Below are positions 3,534 through 19,491 of a stretch of 20,000 nucleotides of DNA, piece after piece; position 1 is the first letter of the stretch, and the number at the start of each line of letters is the position of its first letter. The notes under the pieces are model-generated. The model was not told the origin of the DNA and ran no database searches. It saw only the letters and a program-made list of their open reading frames with translations. The DNA comes from Chiloscyllium plagiosum (lineage: Eukaryota). The stretch lies in the NCBI RefSeq assembly GCF_004010195.1, contig NC_057719.1:9440708-9460707 (forward strand), read 5' to 3'. A program made the position numbers and the translations under genes.

Positions 3534-4135
3534 AAAGACAAGAAATGCTGGAGGTGACAGCAAGTCAGACAGTATTCATGGAAAGAGAGCAAGCTAATGT
3601 TTCCGAATCTAGATGACACTTTGTCAGAGCTGATGTGAAGTGTGGAGGGGACAACGCTTATGCAATTGTGCGGGGGGGGGATGGGGGGAGTGGAGGGAAC
3701 CTGGTGGGGGTGGATGGAGTGCTAGCGGAAGAAAGGATGTTGATAATTTGGATTAAGTGATTGGAATGTGAGTCAAAGATCCAAAGATGTGCTGGTCATG
3801 GGTACGGAAATGGGTCTGCGTGTGTTACTCTTCAGAGGGTCAGTGTTAGATTTGTTTGGCCAAACGGCCTGTTTCCACACTGCAGGGAATCTAATCAATG
3901 GTGTGTCTAACTGTCAGACTGAAAAGGACAGTAACTGGGATGAGGTGAGAAGAGAGGGGAATGGTGACAGAGAGTGTAACAAAAGAAGTGAAAAGGGAGG
4001 GAAGGAACTTGAGTGGGTTCATAATTTGAAGGTCTTGAATTCAATACGAAGTCCAGAAAGTTGTAAGGTGCCTTGTCTGAAGGTGAGATGTTGTTCTTCT
4101 AGTTTGTGTGTTAAGTACCATCACAGGAAGATGAA
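3534..4135 (-). mobile_element. Penelope-like retroelement 3' relic (GIY-YIG C-terminus plus tail with degenerate hammerhead)
   Basis: Minus strand at about 4020-4110 reads KLEEQHLTFRQGTLQLSGLRIEF, paralleling 16286-16351 (+). Its tail matches 16720-16800 and 17140-17280 in reverse. A degenerate CTGACAA..GAAACAT motif lies at about 3595-3628. Confidence 0.8.
3780..3897 (+). mobile_element. HE1-type SINE 3' fragment nested in the Penelope relic
   Basis: ccaaagatgtgc...ctcttcagagggtcagtgt..ggccaaacggcctgtttccacactgcagggaatc matches the reverse complement of the HE1 3' end at 16818-16890. Confidence 0.7.
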
Positions 4136-5044
4136 TACCTTGGCATTTGCCAACAACAACTTGCGCCTCATTGTTTTCATCCCAACATTCAAACTGCTTT
4201 TCTGTCACATCAACATTTTTTGATCACCAATAAATCAAAGTATTCAAAGAAAAATGAAAATAAAATGCAAACACTTTGTGTATCCCTTCTTTTGGCCTCC
4301 CACCAGGGAACGAGAAGTGAGCTTAATGTTATTTCTGGGAATTCCTGAATAACCCTTGGCAAATTGAACTCTGAGGATTAACTGAACCTCTCTCTAAAAC
4401 CTTCCATTAAACCTTGCAAATAAACCAGGAGAGATAAGCGTTTTTCTTTTCCTCTCAGAAAATCCTTATTGCAGAAAATGTGAGTGGTTTCCAAAGAAAT
4501 TTTGCTCTTGGAGTAACAGGTCGTTCATTAAATTGTTAATAATGAGCGAGACAGACAGCTCCCTATAATCTGCTGTGAGATTTCAGTAGCAATTTCCGGA
4601 GTGCTTGCAAGAAATGTAAATGATAGTATGGTGTAAAATAAAAACAAGAGGATGAAACCTCCAGGATGCTGAAAAACCAGACAACCTTGAATTCAACAAG
4701 TGGCTATCAGTTCATTATTAGCAAATCTGTTGCATTGGACATAGCCCAGTTTGCTAGCGATCTCACATGGGAGCACTGAGAGGGTGGACAGTGGTGTCTG
4801 AGCTGAGGCTCTTGTACATGTTTTAGGTATTAGAGCCATGCAGAATTTCAAAGATTCTTGTTCTGTTATGTACCAGTTTCAAAATATCACTGCAATCAAA
4901 AAAATAATACTTGTACTCATGATGAGAGCTCAAGCTTCTAAAATCTCTGTAAGTGTCTGTTCCCCTTGCTCTGAGCCCTCACCCAGGCCTAAGCAGTCAC
5001 ACACAGCGAGTACAGATCAGTCACCAGCCACACATAATCAAACG

Positions 5045-5700
5045 CAGATCAGTGGAGTTGCTGAACGTTGTCTGCCTTCTCAGGTGGACAACGGAGAATC
5101 CCACAGCACTATTACAAAGAAGAGCTGCACTTGGTGTCTGGACTATTGATCTATCTTCAATCAACATGATTTTTGTTCAGTAAGCACAGAGTTAATGCAG
5201 TTTGTAAAAGAAGGAACTGCGATTTGAAAAAAAAAACTTTTCTCACACAGTGAGGAGTTAAGGCCTGGAATGTGCTGCTTGGAAGTGAGGTGGAGGCAGA
5301 TTCAAACAAGACACTCACGAGTGCATTAGGTGATCAGGGCTACAGGGAAAAGGCAGGGAATTGGTATCTAAATTAATATACTCAGGGAGCTGGTGCAGAC
5401 ACAATGGACTGAACAGTCTCCTTCTTCACTACAATAATTCACTGGTTACGGGGATGGCGAGCAGGGAAGTGCGGTTGGGACTGTGCTCTTATTGAATGAT
5501 CGAGGAGACCTGAAAGAGTAAATGGCCTATCCCTCCTCTTGTTTATTTGTAAGTTGTGTTCTTATGAAGCACATTATTTTTATGGCTTTGAGCAAATTGA
5601 CTCCCTCACTCGATACAGTAAAACAGCTACCACACTTCAGGAGTACTTCACTGGCTTTTTTTGTTGCAATTAAGGACATGGATGCATTTATATTAAAATG
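5045..5700 (+). mobile_element. Old Deu-domain SINE (SacSINE1/AmnSINE1-like) remnant split by a CR1 3' fragment at about 5225-5545
   Basis: The 5' part (tgtctgccttctcaggtggac..atcccacagcactatt..aagaagagc..tcaatcaacat) and the 3' part (gcaaattgact..ctaccacacttcaggagtacttcactggct) resemble the recalled Deu domain. The intervening sequence is CR1-like (tctcacacagtgag..tggaatgtgctg). Confidence 0.5.
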
Positions 5701-6049
5701 AGTCACTGCCTGAAATTTAATCAAGTGTTAGAATTATTATCATGTTCTCTTCCTTCATTCAATGGATGCTGGATCCTACAGGATTGCTGCTCTCTTGTCA
5801 AATGCTGTAAATAAATTCATGCACCACAATTAATTACTGCAGTTAATTGTGAGATGAGACTTGTGACTTCCAATTTCCTTGTATTAAATGTAGACACCGT
5901 CTCTCAGGCCTTTAAGGCCCACACCTGCCATATGAGTGTGTGAGGCTGAGGATAAAGGCATGAACCATCAATCATCAAGGTGAGTTGGCTTGTGTGTGTG
6001 TGTTTGTGTGTGGGGCAGAGGGGGAACTGGTGATGTTTTTAACAGGGAC

Positions 6050-6353
6050 AAGTCCAGACCGACTGTCCACAGAGTAACCCACTCAGACCCTTTCCCCTAC
6101 TCTATTACTCTACATTTAACCCTGACTAATGCACCTAACCTACACATCCCTGAATACTATGGGCAATTTAGCATGGCCAATGCACCTAATCTGGACATCT
6201 TTGGATTATGGGTGGAAACCGGAGACCCGGAGGAAACCCACACAGACATGGGGAAAATATGCAAACTCCACACAGACAGTCACCCGAGACTGGAATCAAA
6301 CCTTCGTTCCTGGCCCTGTGAGGCAGCAGTACTATCCACTGAGCCACTGTGTC
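6050..6353 (-). mobile_element. HE1-type V-SINE (tRNA-derived)
   Basis: Minus strand starts gacacagtggctcagtgg (A box), with a decayed B box ggtttgattcc and a V-domain gtgtggagtttgcatattttccccatgtctgtgtgggtttcctccggg. Paralog at 16818-17121. Confidence 0.93.
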
Positions 6354-6437
6354 TTCTACCAGGAATCTGGACATGAACGTGGGAAAGTGATTTAGCTGGT
6401 TATTTTCACTGAAAATCACGACATTCTCTTTTCCATT

Positions 6438-6594
6438 ACAGAGAGATGGCTGGTGGTGAGTTTAAGGTGAGGGTGGCCACCCCTTTGGGGAAGGGTAAGG
6501 TTGAGAGGGCATAGCCTTCATGATGACCTCAGATGGAGCAGGAATTGACTTTAGATCGCTCTACATCACAAATCAGCCATCCAGTTAATCTGAC
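6438..6594 (-). mobile_element. Degenerate tRNA-derived SINE remnant
   Basis: Minus strand ctggatggctgatttgtgatgtagag..gtcaattcctgctccatctgaggtcatcatgaaggctatgccctctcaacctt resembles a recalled shark SINE head and body. Confidence 0.45.
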
Positions 6595-6758
6595 CTCCTC
6601 GTCATATATGTTGTCACTTTCTTGTACAGAGGGCTGCTTCTCTCTCAGTGTCCTCCTCAGACTATGTTCCCAGTGCACCCTCTCCTTTATCATGATCACA
6701 CCATCAGCTCCATCAGTAACTGACTCCTGTCGGATTTTACTCTGGTAAAGCTCTGCAC
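6595..6758 (-). CDS. Candidate internal exon of the same unidentified gene ((G)AELYQSKIRQESVTDGADGVIMIKERVHWEHSLRRTLREKQPSVQESDNIYDEE)
   Basis: Acceptor tgttttcacctctctgttaaAG|GT and donor GAG|GTcaga; 164 nt, with only one of three frames open. It ends in phase 0, compatible with 2398-2604. Confidence 0.5.
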
Positions 6759-7404
6759 CTTTAACAGAGAGGTGAAAACAAGTAATGGGTTTGGATTTAT
6801 TGGGTGGGTGGGGACTGACCATAATAGCAGCTGGGCTCGAGATGCTGTGACCATGGGCAGGGTTCAAAAGGGATGGATGACCTTCAAGGGTGGGGTGCTC
6901 CCAATGCACCCACGGGACACTCAAAAGAAACTCCCTCCCCTGTAGCTGCCTGCCTGACACCAGCCGGTGCATTCAAAGCTTTCTACATGATGTCAGCATC
7001 CCCTTTGAGGGGGTGGTAAAATAGCATCGGTGTTGAAGACCTTCACTGGCCAATTGGCTACTTCAGTGTCTCAAAAGACCCACGTCCCCATTTTCCTTAA
7101 TGTTTGAGATAAATGGATTTCCCACGAGAAGGCCATATTTTGAATTATATGTGACTCCACCCTACTCACCTCCCTCAACCACCACCTGAAACCCACTGGC
7201 AGGAGAACATAAAGTTCAGTTTATGACCAATTTGCTTCAAGTTTTCTTTAATTTATGTTTTCATTTTCAAAACAAAATTGCTGCAGATCCCTGATCCTTC
7301 CATCATTTCTCTGGAAGAGAGTGAGCAGACTCACTCGACGGATGGGGGCAAATCACCCCTCCTCCAGAAGTTGTTTGTCATCTTTGGTGTCCCTCTGCCT
7401 TATG

Positions 7405-8032
7405 AATTCACTTGTGGAAGGATTAGGAGGACACAGATTTAAAACGGTGACATGAGGAAAACGTGACATGAGGAAAAGTCAATGTCTCACAGTGGGATAG
7501 TTAAAGCTTGAAATGTGCTGCCAGAGAGTGTGGTGGAGTCAAGGCCCATTGATGCATTCAATAGACAAAGTTAAAAATCACACAACACCAGGTGATAGTC
7601 CAACAGGTTTATTTGGAAGCACTAGCTGTCGGAGCGCTTCTCCTGCATCAGGTGGTTGTGGAGCAGGACCTTAAGACACAGAATTTATAGCAAAAGGTTA
7701 CAGCAAAATCTTTATAGCAAAACCTTTTACTATAAATTATGTGTCTTATGATCCTGCTCCACAACCCCCTGATGAAGAAACAGTGCTCCGAAGGCCAGTG
7801 CTTCCAAATAAACCTGTTGGATTATAACCTGGTGTTGTGTGATTTTTAACTTTGTACACCCCAGTCCAACACCGGCTTGTCCACATCATGACTACCTTCA
7901 ATACACAACTTAATGTTATCTCATTAGTTATTTGCATCAGAGAAGAGAGGAGAATGGCACAGGGTGAAGTTCTAAGTCGGAGGGCAGGCACAGATAATGG
8001 GCTGAATGGCCTGCGTTGGCAGCAGCTTGACA
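7405..8032 (+). mobile_element. Old CR1 3' fragment interrupted by the 7565-7890 hairpin element
   Basis: ggaggacacagatttaaa..gacatgaggaaaa..tgaaatgtgctgccagagagtgtggtggag..gcattcaa on the left; CR1-type tail atgggctgaatggcct near 8000 on the right. Confidence 0.65.
7565..7890. mobile_element. Penelope-derived inverted-repeat (hairpin) element, family B, with a hammerhead motif in each arm
   Basis: 7565-7699 is the approximate reverse complement of 7721-7855 (acaaagttaaaaatcacacaacaccagg / cctggtgttgtgtgatttttaactttgt). CTGATGA at 7769-7775 (+); mutated mirror copy at about 7622-7651 (-). Confidence 0.85.
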
Positions 8033-8379
8033 TTAACTAACATAAAGAGAAGCTTACACCAGTTGGGGGCTCATCACACTTCTCAGAGATCACCAAATGC
8101 CTCTGAAATCCAAACAAATTCAAACAGTTACTTTTGGCAAGGTATGAGGCCATCAGTCAGTTTATCTGTTTTTTGTCAGTATTAATTAAAGAGTGTCAGG
8201 GGATTCACTGGGTAAGCAGACAGGGCCTGGATTTAGAAATGACTCAGGAACAATGCTGTAGATCCACTGAGTACAGTGGCATAGGGGTGTACTGATACAG
8301 TTCTCTGGAGGGGAGGAGTCATCAGCAAAGTGCCAAAAGGCACATTGTCCCCAAAAATGTAAATCGGCAACAGCAGCGT

Positions 8380-8516
8380 GGCAACTGGCATTGTGTGAAA
8401 CTTTGGTCTCCTTATCTCAAGAAGGAGGTTCTGCTTATGGAAGGTGTGCAACAAAAGGTTTACCAGTCTTGGGATGACAGGACTGATGTATGAGCAGTGA
8501 CTGGATCAGTTAGGAC
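8380..8516 (+). mobile_element. CR1 fragment, probably the 5' part of the element that resumes at about 10385
   Basis: CVKLWSPYLKKEVLLMEGVQQKV-like translation; it breaks just before the DLIETYKI region. Confidence 0.7.
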
Positions 8517-9200
8517 ACAGGAAACAGAGAATCAGGAGTAGCCCATCCAACCCCTCAAGCCAGGTCCACCATTCAATGAGATCATGGCTAATCTGTGGCC
8601 CACCTGCCTTTGGCCCATATCCCTTAATACCTTTGCTTAACAGAAGCTTATCTATCTCAGATTTAAAACCAATGACTAATCCTGCATCGGTTGCCATTTG
8701 TGGAGAGAGAGTTCTGAACACCTACAACCCTTTGTGTGGAAAATTGCTTCCTAAAATCTCGCCTGAATGGTCTGACATAAAATGGCGTCGGTTCTAAAGT
8801 CTCTGACCAGTAGAAATAATTTATCTTTATCCACGCTCTATTTTTCTGTTAATATCTTGAAAACTTCGATCAGATCACCCTTTATTCTTCTAAATTCGAG
8901 ATACAACAGGTCTCATCTTTCCTCATAACTTAACCTCGTTCTTATAAACATACTTCGTAGTCCTTCCTAAGGTGTGGTGCCCACATCTGCTCACAGTACT
9001 CCAAGTGGGGTCTAACCAGGGTTTGGTATAACTGCAACATAACATCTGCATCCTTATACTCCAGACCTCTCGTTATAAAGACCAGCATTCCTTTAGCTTT
9101 CTTGAGTATGTTTCACGCCTGTTCATGATATTCCAAAGATCTATGCAGCTGAACCCCCAAGTCTTTTTGGATATCCACTGTATTTTAAATCTCTCTTCTC
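8517..9200 (-). mobile_element. CR1 3' fragment
   Basis: Minus-strand LVRPHLEYC, GDLIEVFKI and FKSEIDKLLLSKGIKGYG motifs, with the tail near 8520-8580. Confidence 0.88.
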
Positions 9201-13899: not shown

Positions 13900-13979
13900 T
13901 AAAAGGAATTAATTAACCTTTTTTTAATGACAATTGATCGTTCTCATGGTTACTGTTACCGAGACTATGTTTTAACTCA

Positions 13980-14180
13980 GTGAAAGTGAGGACTGCAGAT
14001 GCTGGAGATTAGAGTCAAGAGTGTGGTGCTGGAAAAGTACAGCAGAGCAGAAGAGAATTGACATTTTGGCCAAAGGCCCTTCATCATTCCTGATGAAGGG
14101 CTTTTGCCCGAAACATCGATTCTCCTGCTCCTTGGATGCTGCCTGACCTGCTGTGCTTTTCCAGCACCACACTCTTGATT
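13980..14180. mobile_element. Penelope tail family A, head-to-head hairpin with hammerhead motifs
   Basis: Arms are symmetric about cccttcatca-ttcc-tgatgaaggg (14077-14100). The + arm reads CTGATGA(14090)-A-GGGC-TTTT-GCCC-GAAAC-ATC. Confidence 0.88.
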
Positions 14181-15789
14181 TTAATTACTTGAAGTTAAAC
14201 CCTAACAGCTGACATTCCGAGATTTGAACCACATCCTCCCAGGCCTCTGAAGTACTAGTACCAATGACATTTGCCGCTACAGCACCATCTCATCTCGTTG
14301 TGTTTAAGTACTTATTGTCCACCTTTGATGACCCTGAGAAGCTGGGGACACAACTGTGTTGACACTTTGCTGAAAGCTAGAGAAACCTGCTCCGACCCAC
14401 CACCATTTACAACCCGCCAACGTCAATCAATCCAACATTCAGGCTTTTCTCTATTCATTGTTGGAGCCATGACATGCCAGTGGTACCCTTGAGTATCTCA
14501 GCAAATGCCTACCGTTCACACATAAACGAGCATCACAAGGACTCATTGTCCTGTCAATTGCAGAAGCATTGCAGTCAATTGCCACTCAACTTTCACCCTT
14601 TCGGGTATGGGTTCCTGGATAATGATCTGGAGCTGGAGCATGGCTTTATTCATTGTCCTAGGATCAAGAGATTAATTGCAGAGCTCTCTTAGAGCTGTCA
14701 GAAGCTGACTGAGTTTAAATTGCATAGGCTGGATTTTGGAGCATTTCCTTTCCTCTGAGAGAAAATAAGCAAACAACTCTGGCCTCAGCAAGGATTTGAC
14801 ACAATGCTTCTGAATCTGCAAACCCAGGAAAGGTAAGTGACCATTAATTCTAATCAAGTCGAGTGTAGCACAAAATTCACAGGCTTTAGAAATAGCTAGG
14901 CTGGTGAAGTACAACAGAATGCATCAAATAATGTCTCTCAGCTTTTATATAATGTTGGCTTTCTAAGACATGATCATGATATCACATCATAGCCTATGAC
15001 CTATTTGTGTAAAGATCCTGGTTTTCATTTTACTGAGGCCACTTACAAAATGATACACTTGAGGGAAATGTGCAACAGATTGGAACCAAATTACACCATG
15101 CTAGCCCAGACACAATGGTGACTGGGATTGTACATATGTAGGTACATGGAGCTGTAGTGAACATCTATATCAGTCCTTCAATATCACTGTTTAGTTCTTT
15201 TGTTACAGGAGCCAACGTAAGTATTATTTTATCAGCTACACTTTCCCTTCTGAAGGTAAAAACCCACTGCACCACAGCAGACCACAACAGCAGAACAGAT
15301 CAGAGTACAGGAGAAATTCAGAGTTGCAGTAATTTCTTTTTGCTCCAGAAATTTATTCTAAAGCATCAGCTATTAATGTAAAGTGTTACAAATTCAACTC
15401 AAGAGAACATAATTATGACAGCAGAAGAACGTCAGATTTTAAATTGCAGTGTCGACAAATATGGTTTCATTAGGCAAAAAGTTTGATTCAGCTGCAGCTC
15501 ACTTCCTTAGACATGATGCAGCTGTATTCTGTCCTATTGTTGAATGACGCCAGTCTCTTGCAGATTAAAACAGGATGTGCTTCTGCCTCCTAACTCCTAC
15601 AACCCTGAATGAAACAGTAAACGGTAGGGAAATCGTGCTGTGGCAATGTCACCAGACCACCAGTCCAAGACCAATGCACCGGGGGTATATGTTCAATTCA
15701 GGTGGAAACTGGTGGGTAGATTCAGTTAACAAATCTCATACATTATAAAGCTTGCTTCAGTAATTGTGCAGTGATTGGGTTTTTATCCA

Positions 15790-15860
15790 GGTGGTGGTGC
15801 AATGGCGGTAACTCTAATTCTGGGCTGAAGGATCTGGGTTCAAACCCTACCTGTTCTGGA
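15790..15860 (+). mobile_element. tRNA-derived SINE head (pol III A and B boxes)
   Basis: tggtgcaatgg (15795-15805) and ggttcaaaccc (15837-15847) at tRNA-like spacing; no convincing cloverleaf. Confidence 0.45.
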
Positions 15861-16417
15861 AAAATGTGTTTGAAAAGGTTGGTTTCAAAGAAAGACAGCA
15901 GAGTTCTGACTTCGCAGGGATCGTTCCCTTCGGGACACCACAGTCCATTCCACAACCATCAACACCAACCCCCCTTTCACACGGCACCTTCCTATGTAAG
16001 GTGCAAACCTTCACCTCCTCCATGCTCACCATCCAAGGGCCTGAACAGTCTTTCCAGGTGAAGCAGCATTTCACCTGTTCCTCCTCGAATCCTGCACCAG
16101 AGCGGCCGACTCTACATTGGAGAAACCAAACGCAGAATGGGTGGCCGCTTTGCAGAACACCTCAAGTCTGTGTGCAAGTAGGGCCAGACCTTCTCGTGTA
16201 TGGTTATTTCCACACAGTGTCCTGCTCACATACCCACGTGTCTGTCCTTGGCATGCTGCAATATTCCTGTGAAACACAGCGCTAACTGGAAGAACAACAT
16301 CTCATCTTCAGACTAGGCACTTTCCAACCTTCTGGGCTCAATATTGAGTTCAACATCTTCAAACTGTGAATCCATTCCTTCCCTTTCTTTCAGCTTTGCT
16401 TGTTACATTCACCAGGC

Positions 16418-16547
16418 AAAAGTGAGGATTGCAGATGCTGGAAACCAGAGTTTAGATCAGAGCGCTGCTGGAAAAGCACAACAGGTCAGGCAGCATCCGA
16501 GGAGCAGGAAAATCGACGTTTCGGGCAAAAACCCTTCATCAGGAATA
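16418..16547 (-). mobile_element. Penelope tail family A, single well-preserved arm
   Basis: aaagtgaggattgcagatgctgga..gctggaaaagcacaacaggtcaggcagcatccgaggagcaggaaaatcgacgtttcgggcaaaaacccttcatcaggaat; CpGs are retained. Confidence 0.9.
16510..16546 (-). ncRNA. Minimal type I hammerhead ribozyme motif with an intact core
   Basis: Minus-strand RNA AUUC-CUGAUGA-A-GGGU-UUUU-GCCC-GAAAC-GUC|GAUUU. Both conserved boxes, stem II, a palindromic ACGU in place of stem III and the GUC triplet are present. Confidence 0.8.
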
Positions 16548-16621
16548 GAGGTTACATTCACTGTCACCATGTCCTCTTTCGTCTTCCCCCACCCCACTGG
16601 GACTGTCTACTCTTCCCATTC

Positions 16622-16712
16622 TAGAGTAGACAGGCAGGAGGCTGGAAGAAAACAGCAAGCCAGGTAGCATCAGGGGGTGAAGTCAATGTTTTGGATGTAA
16701 CCCCTCTTCAGG
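16622..16712 (-). mobile_element. Penelope tail, family C, with a degenerate hammerhead
   Basis: Minus strand cCTGAAGA-ggggttacatcc-AAAAC-attgacttc..gatgctacctggcttgctgttttcttccagc. Confidence 0.7.
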
Positions 16713-16817
16713 CTAGTCTGGCAGTTAGACACACCATTCTTCTGCCATTCTCACATTCCCATCACCTAATCTGAACTATCAACATCCTTTCTCCCTTTTC
16801 AGAGGTGGTTCTGATTA

Positions 16818-17121
16818 GGTTCCCTACAGCGCGGAAACAGACCCTTCGGCCCAACTAGTCCACACCGACCCTCCGAAGTGTAAACCACCCAGACCCATTC
16901 ACCTACTCTCTACTAATGCACCTATCACTATGAGCAATTTAGCATGACCAATTCACCTGACCTGCACATCTTTGGACCGTGGGAGGAAACCGGAGCACCT
17001 GAAGGAAACCCACGCAGACACGGGAAGAATGTGCAAACTCCACGCACACAGTTGCCCAAGGCTGGAATTGACCCCGGGTCCCTGGCACTGCGAGGCAACA
17101 GTGCTAACCACTGTGCTGCCC
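16818..17121 (-). mobile_element. HE1-type V-SINE
   Basis: Head gggcagcacagtggttagcactgttgcctcgcagtgccagggacccggggtcaattcc, V-domain, and LINE-derived tail gggccgaagggtctgtttccgcgctgtaggga. Confidence 0.95.
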
Positions 17122-17514: not shown

Positions 17515-17922
17515 AACTCTTCCTTTTTCTTATGCAGCAAATTGTTGTGATCTGGAATACCCTGGCTGGAAGGATAGTGGAAACAAGTTCAATTGTAGTT
17601 TGCAGGAGAGAACTAAATATAAACATGAAGAGAGAAAAAAATACAGAGGAACCTCGATTATCCGGCAGTCGATTAACCGAATTTCGGATTATCCGAACAA
17701 GATCGCAAGGTCCTGATGCGTGGCTAACTATGTTGTCCAGCATTGATTATCCGGCATTCAATTAACCGAGCAAAATACTCCTGGACTGTCTCCTGTGGAG
17801 AATCGAGGTTCCTCTGTATAATCACTGGCTACGCAGGAGGGAGAGAGAAGTGGAACTAATTGCATGTGGATCCATGAGAGTCTGATTGTCCTCCGAAAGC
17901 TACACAATTCTATGATTCTGTA
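17515..17922 (+). mobile_element. Old CR1 3' fragment interrupted by the MITE
   Basis: MQQIVVIWNTLAGRIVETSSIVVCRRELNINMK, a decayed QRVVxxWNxLP motif; tail ends attctatgattctgt. Confidence 0.7.
17644..17816. mobile_element. 173-bp MITE, Tc1/mariner-pogo (Tigger-like) superfamily
   Basis: Perfect 16-bp TIRs CAGAGGAACCTCGATT (17644-17659 and 17801-17816), TA on both sides, and internal repeated gatta(t/a)ccg motifs. Confidence 0.93.
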
Positions 17923-18604: not shown

Positions 18605-19048
18605 CCTCATTTTCCAACACTGAGTTCAAGAACTTCAGATCAGAACCTATTTTGCATCAATATCTCTCCTTTACTTTCATTATAAATCCCTTTGTCTTTT
18701 GCTCTGGACACCCTTACCATCTAGATTACAGTGGTGCTGGAAAAGCACAGCAGGTCAGGCAGCATCCGAGGAGCAGGAAAATCCTGATTCCTGATGAAGG
18801 GCCTTTGCCCGAAGTGTTGATTTTCCTGCTCCTCGGACGCTGCCTGACCTGCTGCGTTTTTCCAGCACCACTCTAATCTTGACTCTGATCTCCAGCATCT
18901 ATTCCACTTGCTCCACCTTCCCCTCCCCATTATTTTCCAGGCCCCTTCACTTCTTAAGAAAATTTATTGGACTCAAAACATTAACTCTGCTTCTCTCCTC
19001 ACAGGTGCTGGCAGACCTGCTGAGTTTCTCCAGCACTTTCTGATTTTA
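18605..19048 (+). mobile_element. Penelope 3' relic hosting the 18721-18900 hairpin
   Basis: caacactgagttcaagaacttcaga parallels the NIEFNxF end of the other copies. The tail has a degenerate hammerhead (cttaagaa..ggactcaaaacattaact, about 18953-18986) and cagacctgctgagtttctccagcactttctg. Confidence 0.65.
18721..18900. mobile_element. Penelope tail family A hairpin
   Basis: The left arm (about 18724-18783) is the reverse complement of 18819-18878. The right arm has CTGATGA(18791)-A-GGGC-CTTT-GCCC-GAAG, a mutated GAAA box. Confidence 0.9.
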
Positions 19049-19049
19049 A

Positions 19050-19272
19050 ACAGAGGCTCCCGTTCTGAAGGACATGTGGGAAAAAAAAAGTCCTATGGCA
19101 CAAGTAAAGCCCTCCCTCAAGTTGTCCCCAGTGTCCTAGCCGGTATTTAAGCCTCATTACAAAATATAAAGAGGATCTAGACATGGCTGGTTGGTGGGGT
19201 TTGCTGTGTACAAATCGCTGTTTTATGACCTACATGGCAATTGTGACTACTCTTCCAAATGACTCTATTGAC
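19050..19272 (+). mobile_element. Old Deu-domain SINE remnant
   Basis: aaagtcctatggcac..ccccagtgtcctagcc..ggtggggtttgctgtgtacaaat..gtgactactcttccaaatgactctattg resembles the recalled Deu/AmnSINE1 body. Confidence 0.5.
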
Positions 19273-19273
19273 T

Positions 19274-19491
19274 AGGAGAAAGTGAGGACTGTAGATGGTG
19301 GAGATCAGAGTCAAAAGATGTGGCGCTGCAAAAGCACAGCAGGTCAGGCAGCAACCGAGTAGCAGGGGAGTCACTGTTTCGAAAATAAGCTCTTCATCAG
19401 AAGTGACGAGATTATGCTCGAAACATCGACTCTCCTGCTCCTGGGATGCTGCCTGACTGGCTGCACTTTTTCAGTGCCACACCTTTTGACT
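19274..19491. mobile_element. Penelope tail family A hairpin with degenerate hammerheads
   Basis: Left arm (minus) CTGATGA-AGAGC-TTAT-TTTC-GAAAC; right arm gctcGAAACATCgactctcctgctcc..gatgctgcctgactggctg. Confidence 0.85.

Follow-up and report, generated by a model that had tools for sequence, protein, structure and literature searches.

Minimal hammerhead ribozymes (min-HHRs) in Penelope-like elements (PLEs) form a class that has already been described (PMC4209133; PMC8557442; reviewed in PMC6155905 and PMC6765202). In the pseudo-LTRs of metazoan PLEs (Cervera and De la Pena 2014, PMC4209133), they have a CUGANGA box with an extra base, a G10.1-C11.1 stem II, a GAAAC-GUH segment, a palindromic 15.2-16.2 without loop III and a short stem I, and they occur mostly as single, truncated, dispersed copies and in head-to-head pairs. 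The family described here shares all of these features. In contrast, its stem II is 4 bp long, and it has roughly tenfold more copies than the 4,000-9,000 reported for coelacanth and Xenopus. Helix I of min-HHRs is typically 4-5 bp, and 2 bp in D. virilis. According to the 2014 paper, in vivo evidence for PLE hammerheads was absent. We found no literature on Penelope hammerhead ribozymes in sharks, and the main text of PMC4209133 names no cartilaginous fish; its supplements and a 2026 preprint (bioRxiv 10.64898/2026.07.22.740005) may list cartilaginous-fish motifs.

Three further systems are close to the present one. Poseidon_Ac (PAc) of Anolis carolinensis, as reported by Frangieh et al. (2024, PMC11167929), likewise has its hammerhead at the pseudo-LTR/ORF junction, a start of reverse transcription about 110 nt downstream, an optional 30-40 nt tail and uncleaved RNA as the dominant template. 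The U6/LINE-1 chimeric pseudogenes described by Moldovan et al. (2019, PMC6789731) are, like the chimeras reported below, U6 sequences with 5 T joined without microhomology to retroelement RNA and retro-copied. Their junctions are variable and the nuclease is unknown, whereas the family junctions found here, at loci other than the window copy, all fall on one base. No literature on U6-Penelope hammerhead chimeras was found, and a search for Penelope, RtcB and hammerhead gave nothing on U6-PLE fusions in titles or the openings of abstracts. Non-LTR retrozymes (Li, Clavereau and Pollet 2026, bioRxiv 10.64898/2026.07.22.740005) are non-coding, PLE-derived sequences with a type I hammerhead, as is the copy studied here, and are reported in one chondrichthyan genome. 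However, they are tandem units, each with a hammerhead, whereas our copy is a single stub with a target-site duplication (TSD).

The DNA analysed (the window) is a 20,000-nt stretch of the Chiloscyllium plagiosum genome, numbered from its first letter. Its minus strand carries a hammerhead core within a short PLE insertion (Table 1).

Table 1. Positions of the hammerhead copy, its parts and its immediate surroundings in the window.
Feature	Position	Strand	Basis
PLE stub, 138 bp, made up of the hammerhead and about 100 nt more, the optional tail among them	16413..16550	minus	alignment, TSD
TSD, copy at the 5' end of the stub, 11/11 identical	16551..16561	.	sequence
TSD, copy at the 3' end of the stub, in the 3' UTR of the older PLE	16402..16412	.	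alignment with the older PLE's relatives extends through 16410
Optional PLE tail of 30-40 nt, which only part of the family copies have	16413..16450	minus	alignment; PMC8557442, PMC11167929
YYANWYY resembling an initiator, with its A at 16546, the usual first position of family copies; candidate start of transcription	16542..16548	minus	
Stem I, 5' strand AUUC	16543..16546	minus	sequence, alignment, covariation
Core box CUGAUGA	16542-16536	minus	sequence
CUGAUGA plus extra unpaired A (16535), typical of PLE minimal hammerheads	16535..16542	minus	sequence; PMC4209133
Stem II, GGGU (16534-16531), UUUU, GCCC (16526-16523)	16523..16534	minus	sequence, fold
GAAAC box (16522-16518) and GUC triplet (16517-16515)	16515..16522	minus	includes stem III, the palindrome ACGU without a loop
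Stem I, 3' strand GAUU	16511..16514	minus	sequence, alignment, covariation
Older broken PLE remnant, recipient of the insertion	15940..16412	+	GIY-YIG piece 16062-16178, C-terminal piece 16286-16369, then 3' UTR
Hammerhead from a second PLE family, decayed by mutation of its GAAA box and lying at an inversion junction	16685..16711	minus	

The first-pass annotation, made from the letters alone, had read this core base by base, and both its letters and its coordinates were exact. The CUGANGA and GAAA boxes and the NUH triplet are all present, and the predicted cut falls where the annotation had placed it, between 16515 and 16514. Stem III is indeed the palindrome A-C-G-U without a loop; a monomer therefore cannot fold, as had been claimed, and only an intermolecular helix completes the fold. 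Stem I, described there as weak with 2-3 bp, consists of C-G, U-A, a U/U mismatch and A-U (2 bp, a mismatch and 1 bp), a short helix I of the min-HHR type that has 4 bp in the GAAU subfamily. The annotation also stated that PLE hammerheads cleave as dimers; published minimal ones showed no cleavage as monomers and low cleavage as dimers (PMC4209133). The copy had also been called the only unmutated core in the window. This is accurate for the catalytic core, since no other core in the window has all conserved positions and a self-complementary stem III (ACAU at 14090, GAAG at 18792, ACAGUG at 19400). It is not accurate for stem II, where GGGU stands in place of the family majority GGGC, a C-to-U change; GGGU/UUUU/GCCC was found in 1 of 85 aligned family rows, the window copy itself. 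This is one of 5 differences from the family majority letters over 76 positions.

The window copy by itself does not stand out statistically. A loose hammerhead pattern gave 7 overlapping matches at 3 sites in the window, a number reached by 31 of 200 shuffles, and is not significant there. Folded as a single strand, the motif had a z-score of -0.83, hence no significant structure, and the predicted fold paired CUGAU with GUCGA instead of forming the hammerhead stems. An Rfam covariance-model search of the window returned no hammerhead family at E<=1, as expected for a motif without helix III. The ACGU duplex was predicted at -1.7 kcal/mol, stem I contributed no stability, and free cofolding of two copies did not yield the hammerhead dimer.

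The motif begins 8 nt inside the 138-bp insertion (16550-16413, minus). The stub is the end of a pseudo-LTR and presumably also the leader of the element mRNA. The annotation had called it a Penelope-derived minimal type I hammerhead, and this origin was borne out by remains of reverse transcriptase (RT) and GIY-YIG endonuclease linked in cis to cores of the family. RT motifs were located upstream of the core on the same strand at two loci (L029, PF00078 E=0.00097, below the curated cut-off; L016, no Pfam match), and a GIY-YIG fragment was so placed at a third (L022, PF01541 E=0.0025, also below the curated cut-off). The scores stayed under the cut-offs because only fragments were visible. At L015, the endonuclease C-terminus runs directly into the UTR and then the hammerhead. 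The linkage of RT and C-terminal GIY-YIG was thus found for the family (L029, L016, L022, L015), not for the stub, and some 200-250 nt separate the GIY-YIG C-terminus from the hammerhead behind it. In partial tandems (L008, L027/L028), the tail is followed by an ORF start (L008 and L028), presumably that of the next unit, which places the motif within the pseudo-LTR with which the next unit opens, as in the anole element (PMC11167929). Such tandems can help to map the leader. Traits of EN+ PLEs were also found, namely 5' truncation, inverted 5' copies (79 of 158 copies were in head-to-head pairs) and the optional tail. The family differs from PAc in having a CX4CxxC linker before GIY-YIG; linkers of the CX2-5CxxC type are ascribed to Neptune/Nematis, not Poseidon (PMC8557442), and the likeness to the Neptune clade is one of a single motif, in L022.

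The genome-wide pattern search suggested in the first-pass annotation gave 89,847 exact intact cores in the 3.56-Gb genome (22,580 with CUGAUGA and 67,267 with CUGAAGA), and 0 matches for the reversed-pattern controls. Covariation was assessed with a descriptor that fixed only the two boxes and U16.1, applied to 1.02 Mb from nine regions. It matched 132 times, with a stem II of at least 3 bp in 92; five shuffles gave 7-16 matches, 0-3 of them with the stem. At least five PLE hammerhead families coexist in this sample, including one with a long stem II and a second family with an AGCU stem III that is predicted to cut after CUA. The annotation had made its reading depend on a conserved core and a covarying stem II, and all three stems covary across families: stem I occurs as UC/GA, AC/GU, UU/AA and CA/UG, stem II differs in length and sequence with pairing kept, and stem III switches from ACGU to AGCU with the palindrome kept. 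This covariation argues that selection kept the ribozyme fold in the master elements. The significance of the motif comes from the family, not from the window copy.

Individual copies, in contrast to the master elements, decay neutrally. In a copy survey, 158 of 208 anchor matches were kept and 50 were dropped (other families, very short or N-adjacent); two reference copies were set by hand to 'long'. Of these family copies, 103 reach C3, and the core is strictly intact in 24 of the 103, about one in four. CpG decay over 85 gap-free rows was equal inside and outside the core (64/340 vs 32/170, 18.8% in both), the catalytic G12 included, and the decay of the core is neutral. Non-CpG mutations were fewer in the core (20/850) than in non-core positions (98/2295), in rows that had been chosen by core similarity; the difference could reflect selection.

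To map the 5' ends of family copies, anchored extension was used with ten natural long copies as references. Among the 134 copies at risk, 107 stop within +9 to -9 of C3, with a peak at -5 to -3. The hazard was 0.081 per nt at the pile, compared with 0.005 just downstream and 0.017 upstream, and may be somewhat overstated, since some long copies could come out too short where their subfamily had no reference. The peak fits the initiator-like YYANWYY. Upstream, the pile ends sharply at about -5 to -8 in several subfamilies with differing upstream sequence. It fits, and is most simply read as, run-off of RT from the 5' end of uncleaved transcripts, because RT of the anole PLE starts inside the RNA at the tail (PMC11167929). 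Read in this way, the pile predicts where the element promoter fires.

The pile might instead have arisen without marking a transcription start, if the endonuclease cut its own DNA at ATT, if targets cut at ATT annealed to the cDNA, or if RT was released at the folded ribozyme. We consider this unlikely, though a serious competitor. In the anole PLE, 5'-ATT-3' is the site preferred by the endonuclease, which is also able to nick the element's own pseudo-LTR (PMC11167929). The pile is also broad (+9 to -9) instead of falling on a single base, and no cap-derived extra G was seen at 25 5' junctions (G 5, C 14, A 4, T 2). A sharp upstream end at -5 to -8 in subfamilies that differ upstream, and the match to the initiator consensus, are points against such an origin. 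RT stalling at a structure, moreover, should occur at its 3' foot, not on its 5' side. In two studied elements, PLE starts were located in the pseudo-LTR (PMC8557442). Run-off from the transcript 5' end is our preferred reading of the pile.

Indirect evidence that the family also cuts in vivo came from chimeras with U6. A census with two patterns for the U6 3' end (exact 16-mer) gave 55 matches, of which 54 were read. Since the pattern was not specific (86 matches in the reversed control), the matches were checked by alignment, and 38 were confirmed as U6. In the chimeras with the stub's family, seven out of seven join at the GUC cut base (the equivalent of 16514), after exactly 5 T. They represent seven different subfamily sequences on six contigs, one of them (L207) being the subfamily of the window copy, and the junctions are exact and without microhomology. 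None of the confirmed family chimeras is fused at the main 5'-end pile, which is 15-fold commoner than starts at the cut site; seven of seven at the cut would have a chance of about 3e-10 if drawn from ordinary 5' ends. In the AGCU family, two exact U6 junctions lie right after CUA (L243 and L238, the latter identified as U6 by the 16-nt pattern only), and at L193 U6 is probably joined to a third PLE family. Hammerhead cleavage leaves a 5'-OH end. The 3' end of mature U6 consists of 5 U with a cyclic phosphate, and RtcB ligates it to 5'-OH ends (PMC6789731). The exact junctions at the cut are thus likely to be indirect evidence, read from DNA, that the family cleaves in vivo.

A second class of U6 chimera was observed: behind about 13 U6 copies, with no gap or one of up to about 10 nt, comes the 5' portion of a tRNA-type SINE (L199, L200, L202, L206, L211, L213, L215, L221, L232, L237, L241, L244 and L247). 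The SINE is presumably HE1-like. U6 fusions therefore do not always need a ribozyme end. Starts at the cut base in ordinary copies were considered as a further footprint of cleavage and rejected. Such starts made up 7 of 154 ordinary copies (at +27/28), and 905 copies genome-wide start at the cut base after four non-family bases; 30 of these were read and comprised 22 inversion junctions, GA microhomology being present at many, as well as 4 small deletions and 4 solo copies. With a second start pattern (3,899 matches), starts also piled up at +24/25 and +32/33, as judged by eye among the 100 matches listed.

It is improbable that the hammerheads never cut in vivo and are carried along as vestigial passengers, the U6 fusions arising by template switching at a structure-dependent RT pause. 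Hammerhead mutants were without effect on insertion in vitro in the anole study, where cleavage was not needed for it, and no anole RNA-seq reads ended at the cut (PMC11167929). That study reported no sign of cleavage in vivo, whereas in the present genome the cut is marked by U6 chimeras. Hammerheads are absent from Naiad PLEs, which thrive nonetheless (PMC8557442), and the inversion junctions described above favour the cut base too. However, passengers of this kind would not account for three stems covarying across at least five families, for exact junctions without microhomology at the cut and none at the commoner 5'-end pile, or for the two junctions after CUA in the AGCU family.

Cleavage in a minority of element RNAs, with run-off on the remainder, would combine these observations as follows. 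The hammerhead stands behind the GIY-YIG C-terminus of one unit, in the pseudo-LTR that opens the next, and transcription would start 4-5 nt upstream of its core, at the initiator-like site. By analogy with the anole PLE in vitro (PMC11167929), the endonuclease would nick the target and RT would begin at the tail, at an internal point of the RNA about 110-140 nt away from the 5' end. On uncleaved RNA, RT would run off the 5' end and leave the TSD-flanked stubs or head-to-head pairs that were observed. A minority of element RNAs would dimerise through ACGU, probably aided by protein, and be cut after GUC; the resulting 5'-OH end would occasionally be ligated to U6 and retro-copied into the chimeras found. 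We regard it as reasonably probable that PLE RNA has in this way left a two-part record in DNA, with hundreds of thousands of run-off stubs mapping its start and the U6 fusions mapping a germ-line cut followed by RtcB-type ligation. If so, the stubs place the transcription start 4-5 nt before the ribozyme, and the weak minimal PLE hammerheads of animals cleave in the germ line. The single window copy matters little, and the interest lies with the family, which bears on the in vivo role of PLE hammerheads through the indirect evidence of its exact U6 junctions.

The window copy is an ordinary member of the known class and not a special one. Its being the only intact core in the window had been taken to mean that it may be active. 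This did not hold up, as about one in four family copies is intact, decay is neutral and no intact same-strand partner core exists in the window or within 12 kb. The nearest ones lie at window-relative +28,876 and -6,821 (12 kb and 23 kb off). Cutting at this locus would be negligible, given that it has no ORF, no nearby partner and weak stems. We hold with good confidence that the copy is a passive, neutrally decaying by-product, and that the same ribozyme would cut in the RNA of its parent element. A non-LTR retrozyme was rejected for a single stub with a TSD, no tandem and its nearest intact same-strand core 12 kb away, and a domesticated intronic hammerhead of the RECK type was rejected for want of a monomer stem III and a host gene.

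The candidate host gene that the first-pass annotation had placed on the minus strand was not established. A Pfam search gave no match above the cut-off among 91 ORFs of the window and 85 of the flanks, and exon-like splice-signal pairs in the window were commoner on the plus strand (9 candidates at 5 acceptors) than on the minus strand (2). A rough splice-signal scan over 220 kb gave 31 candidates on plus and 35 on minus. Two plus-strand pieces are possibly exons of a plus-strand gene: a short open frame at 14762-14832 with a very strong donor site at 14832, for which a PDB search gave no match, and an 8-nt acceptor-donor pair at 15209-15216. Solo family copies in the 220 kb around the window (C10:9340708-9560707) numbered 22 on minus and 9 on plus (p=0.03), an imbalance that was heterogeneous over 9 blocks (p=0.03), and 6 of 7 intact cores in this region were on minus. 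The imbalance could reflect selection tied to host transcription. Sense-oriented inserts are usually lost from host genes. If the imbalance is of this usual kind, the host gene would be on the plus strand, opposite to the annotation, which is unproven.

RNA reads were inspected over 14200-16850. In one single-cell poly(A) run (X5), of which about 2% was read, 1,380 reads fell on repeats only, and at least 99% was reached by 3 of them. As a weak test at this depth, the run gave no reads on the unique flank 14200-15979 and no position with many read starts or ends; a second run (X6) gave no reads on 14200-16850, again a weak test. Reads of other family copies leave the element at the position equivalent to 16546 (103 reads). 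It is very improbable that the window copy acts as a ribozyme within an intron, cutting the pre-mRNA of a minus-strand host gene through a second copy in the same transcript or in trans, for although its core is intact, three further intact same-strand family cores are given as within 24 kb (+28,876, -6,821 and -16,312) and the family cuts in vivo judging by the U6 chimeras, with L207 from its own subfamily, neither a host gene nor its strand is established, the ACGU duplex at -1.7 kcal/mol and a stem I without stability gave no hammerhead dimer on free cofolding, published dimers cut weakly (PMC4209133), the anole motif needs the element's protein to cut (PMC11167929), and RNA read starts and ends show no pile at the cut, though this test is weak.

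The surroundings of the stub contain further PLE remains. The GIY-YIG piece of the older remnant that received the insertion matched PF01541 with E=0.034, under the cut-off. The 3'-side duplication (16402-16412) resembles the element's own continuation behind the tail, and several family copies align through it. This likeness hints at annealing of target and RNA at priming, which the anole study did not see (PMC11167929). Seven further pieces of the stub's family lie in the window, six of which form three head-to-head pairs. In the pair at 18722-18900, the first base of the minus arm is exactly the predicted cut base (18783), while the plus arm begins at the ATTCC start; the GA microhomology at its junction means that fold-back explains it without cleavage. 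The pairs at 13972-14185 and 19267-19491 have their junctions at the hammerhead 5' end, and both cores are decayed. An inverted repeat at 7565-7855 (135 nt, 89% complementary, with a spacer of 21 nt), which is either MITE-like or a head-to-head PLE pair, gave rise to spurious Rfam miRNA matches in the window. At 17656-17769, two 25-nt direct copies (GATTATCCGG...) lie in a small element whose arms are inverted and which is probably the remnant of a DNA transposon.
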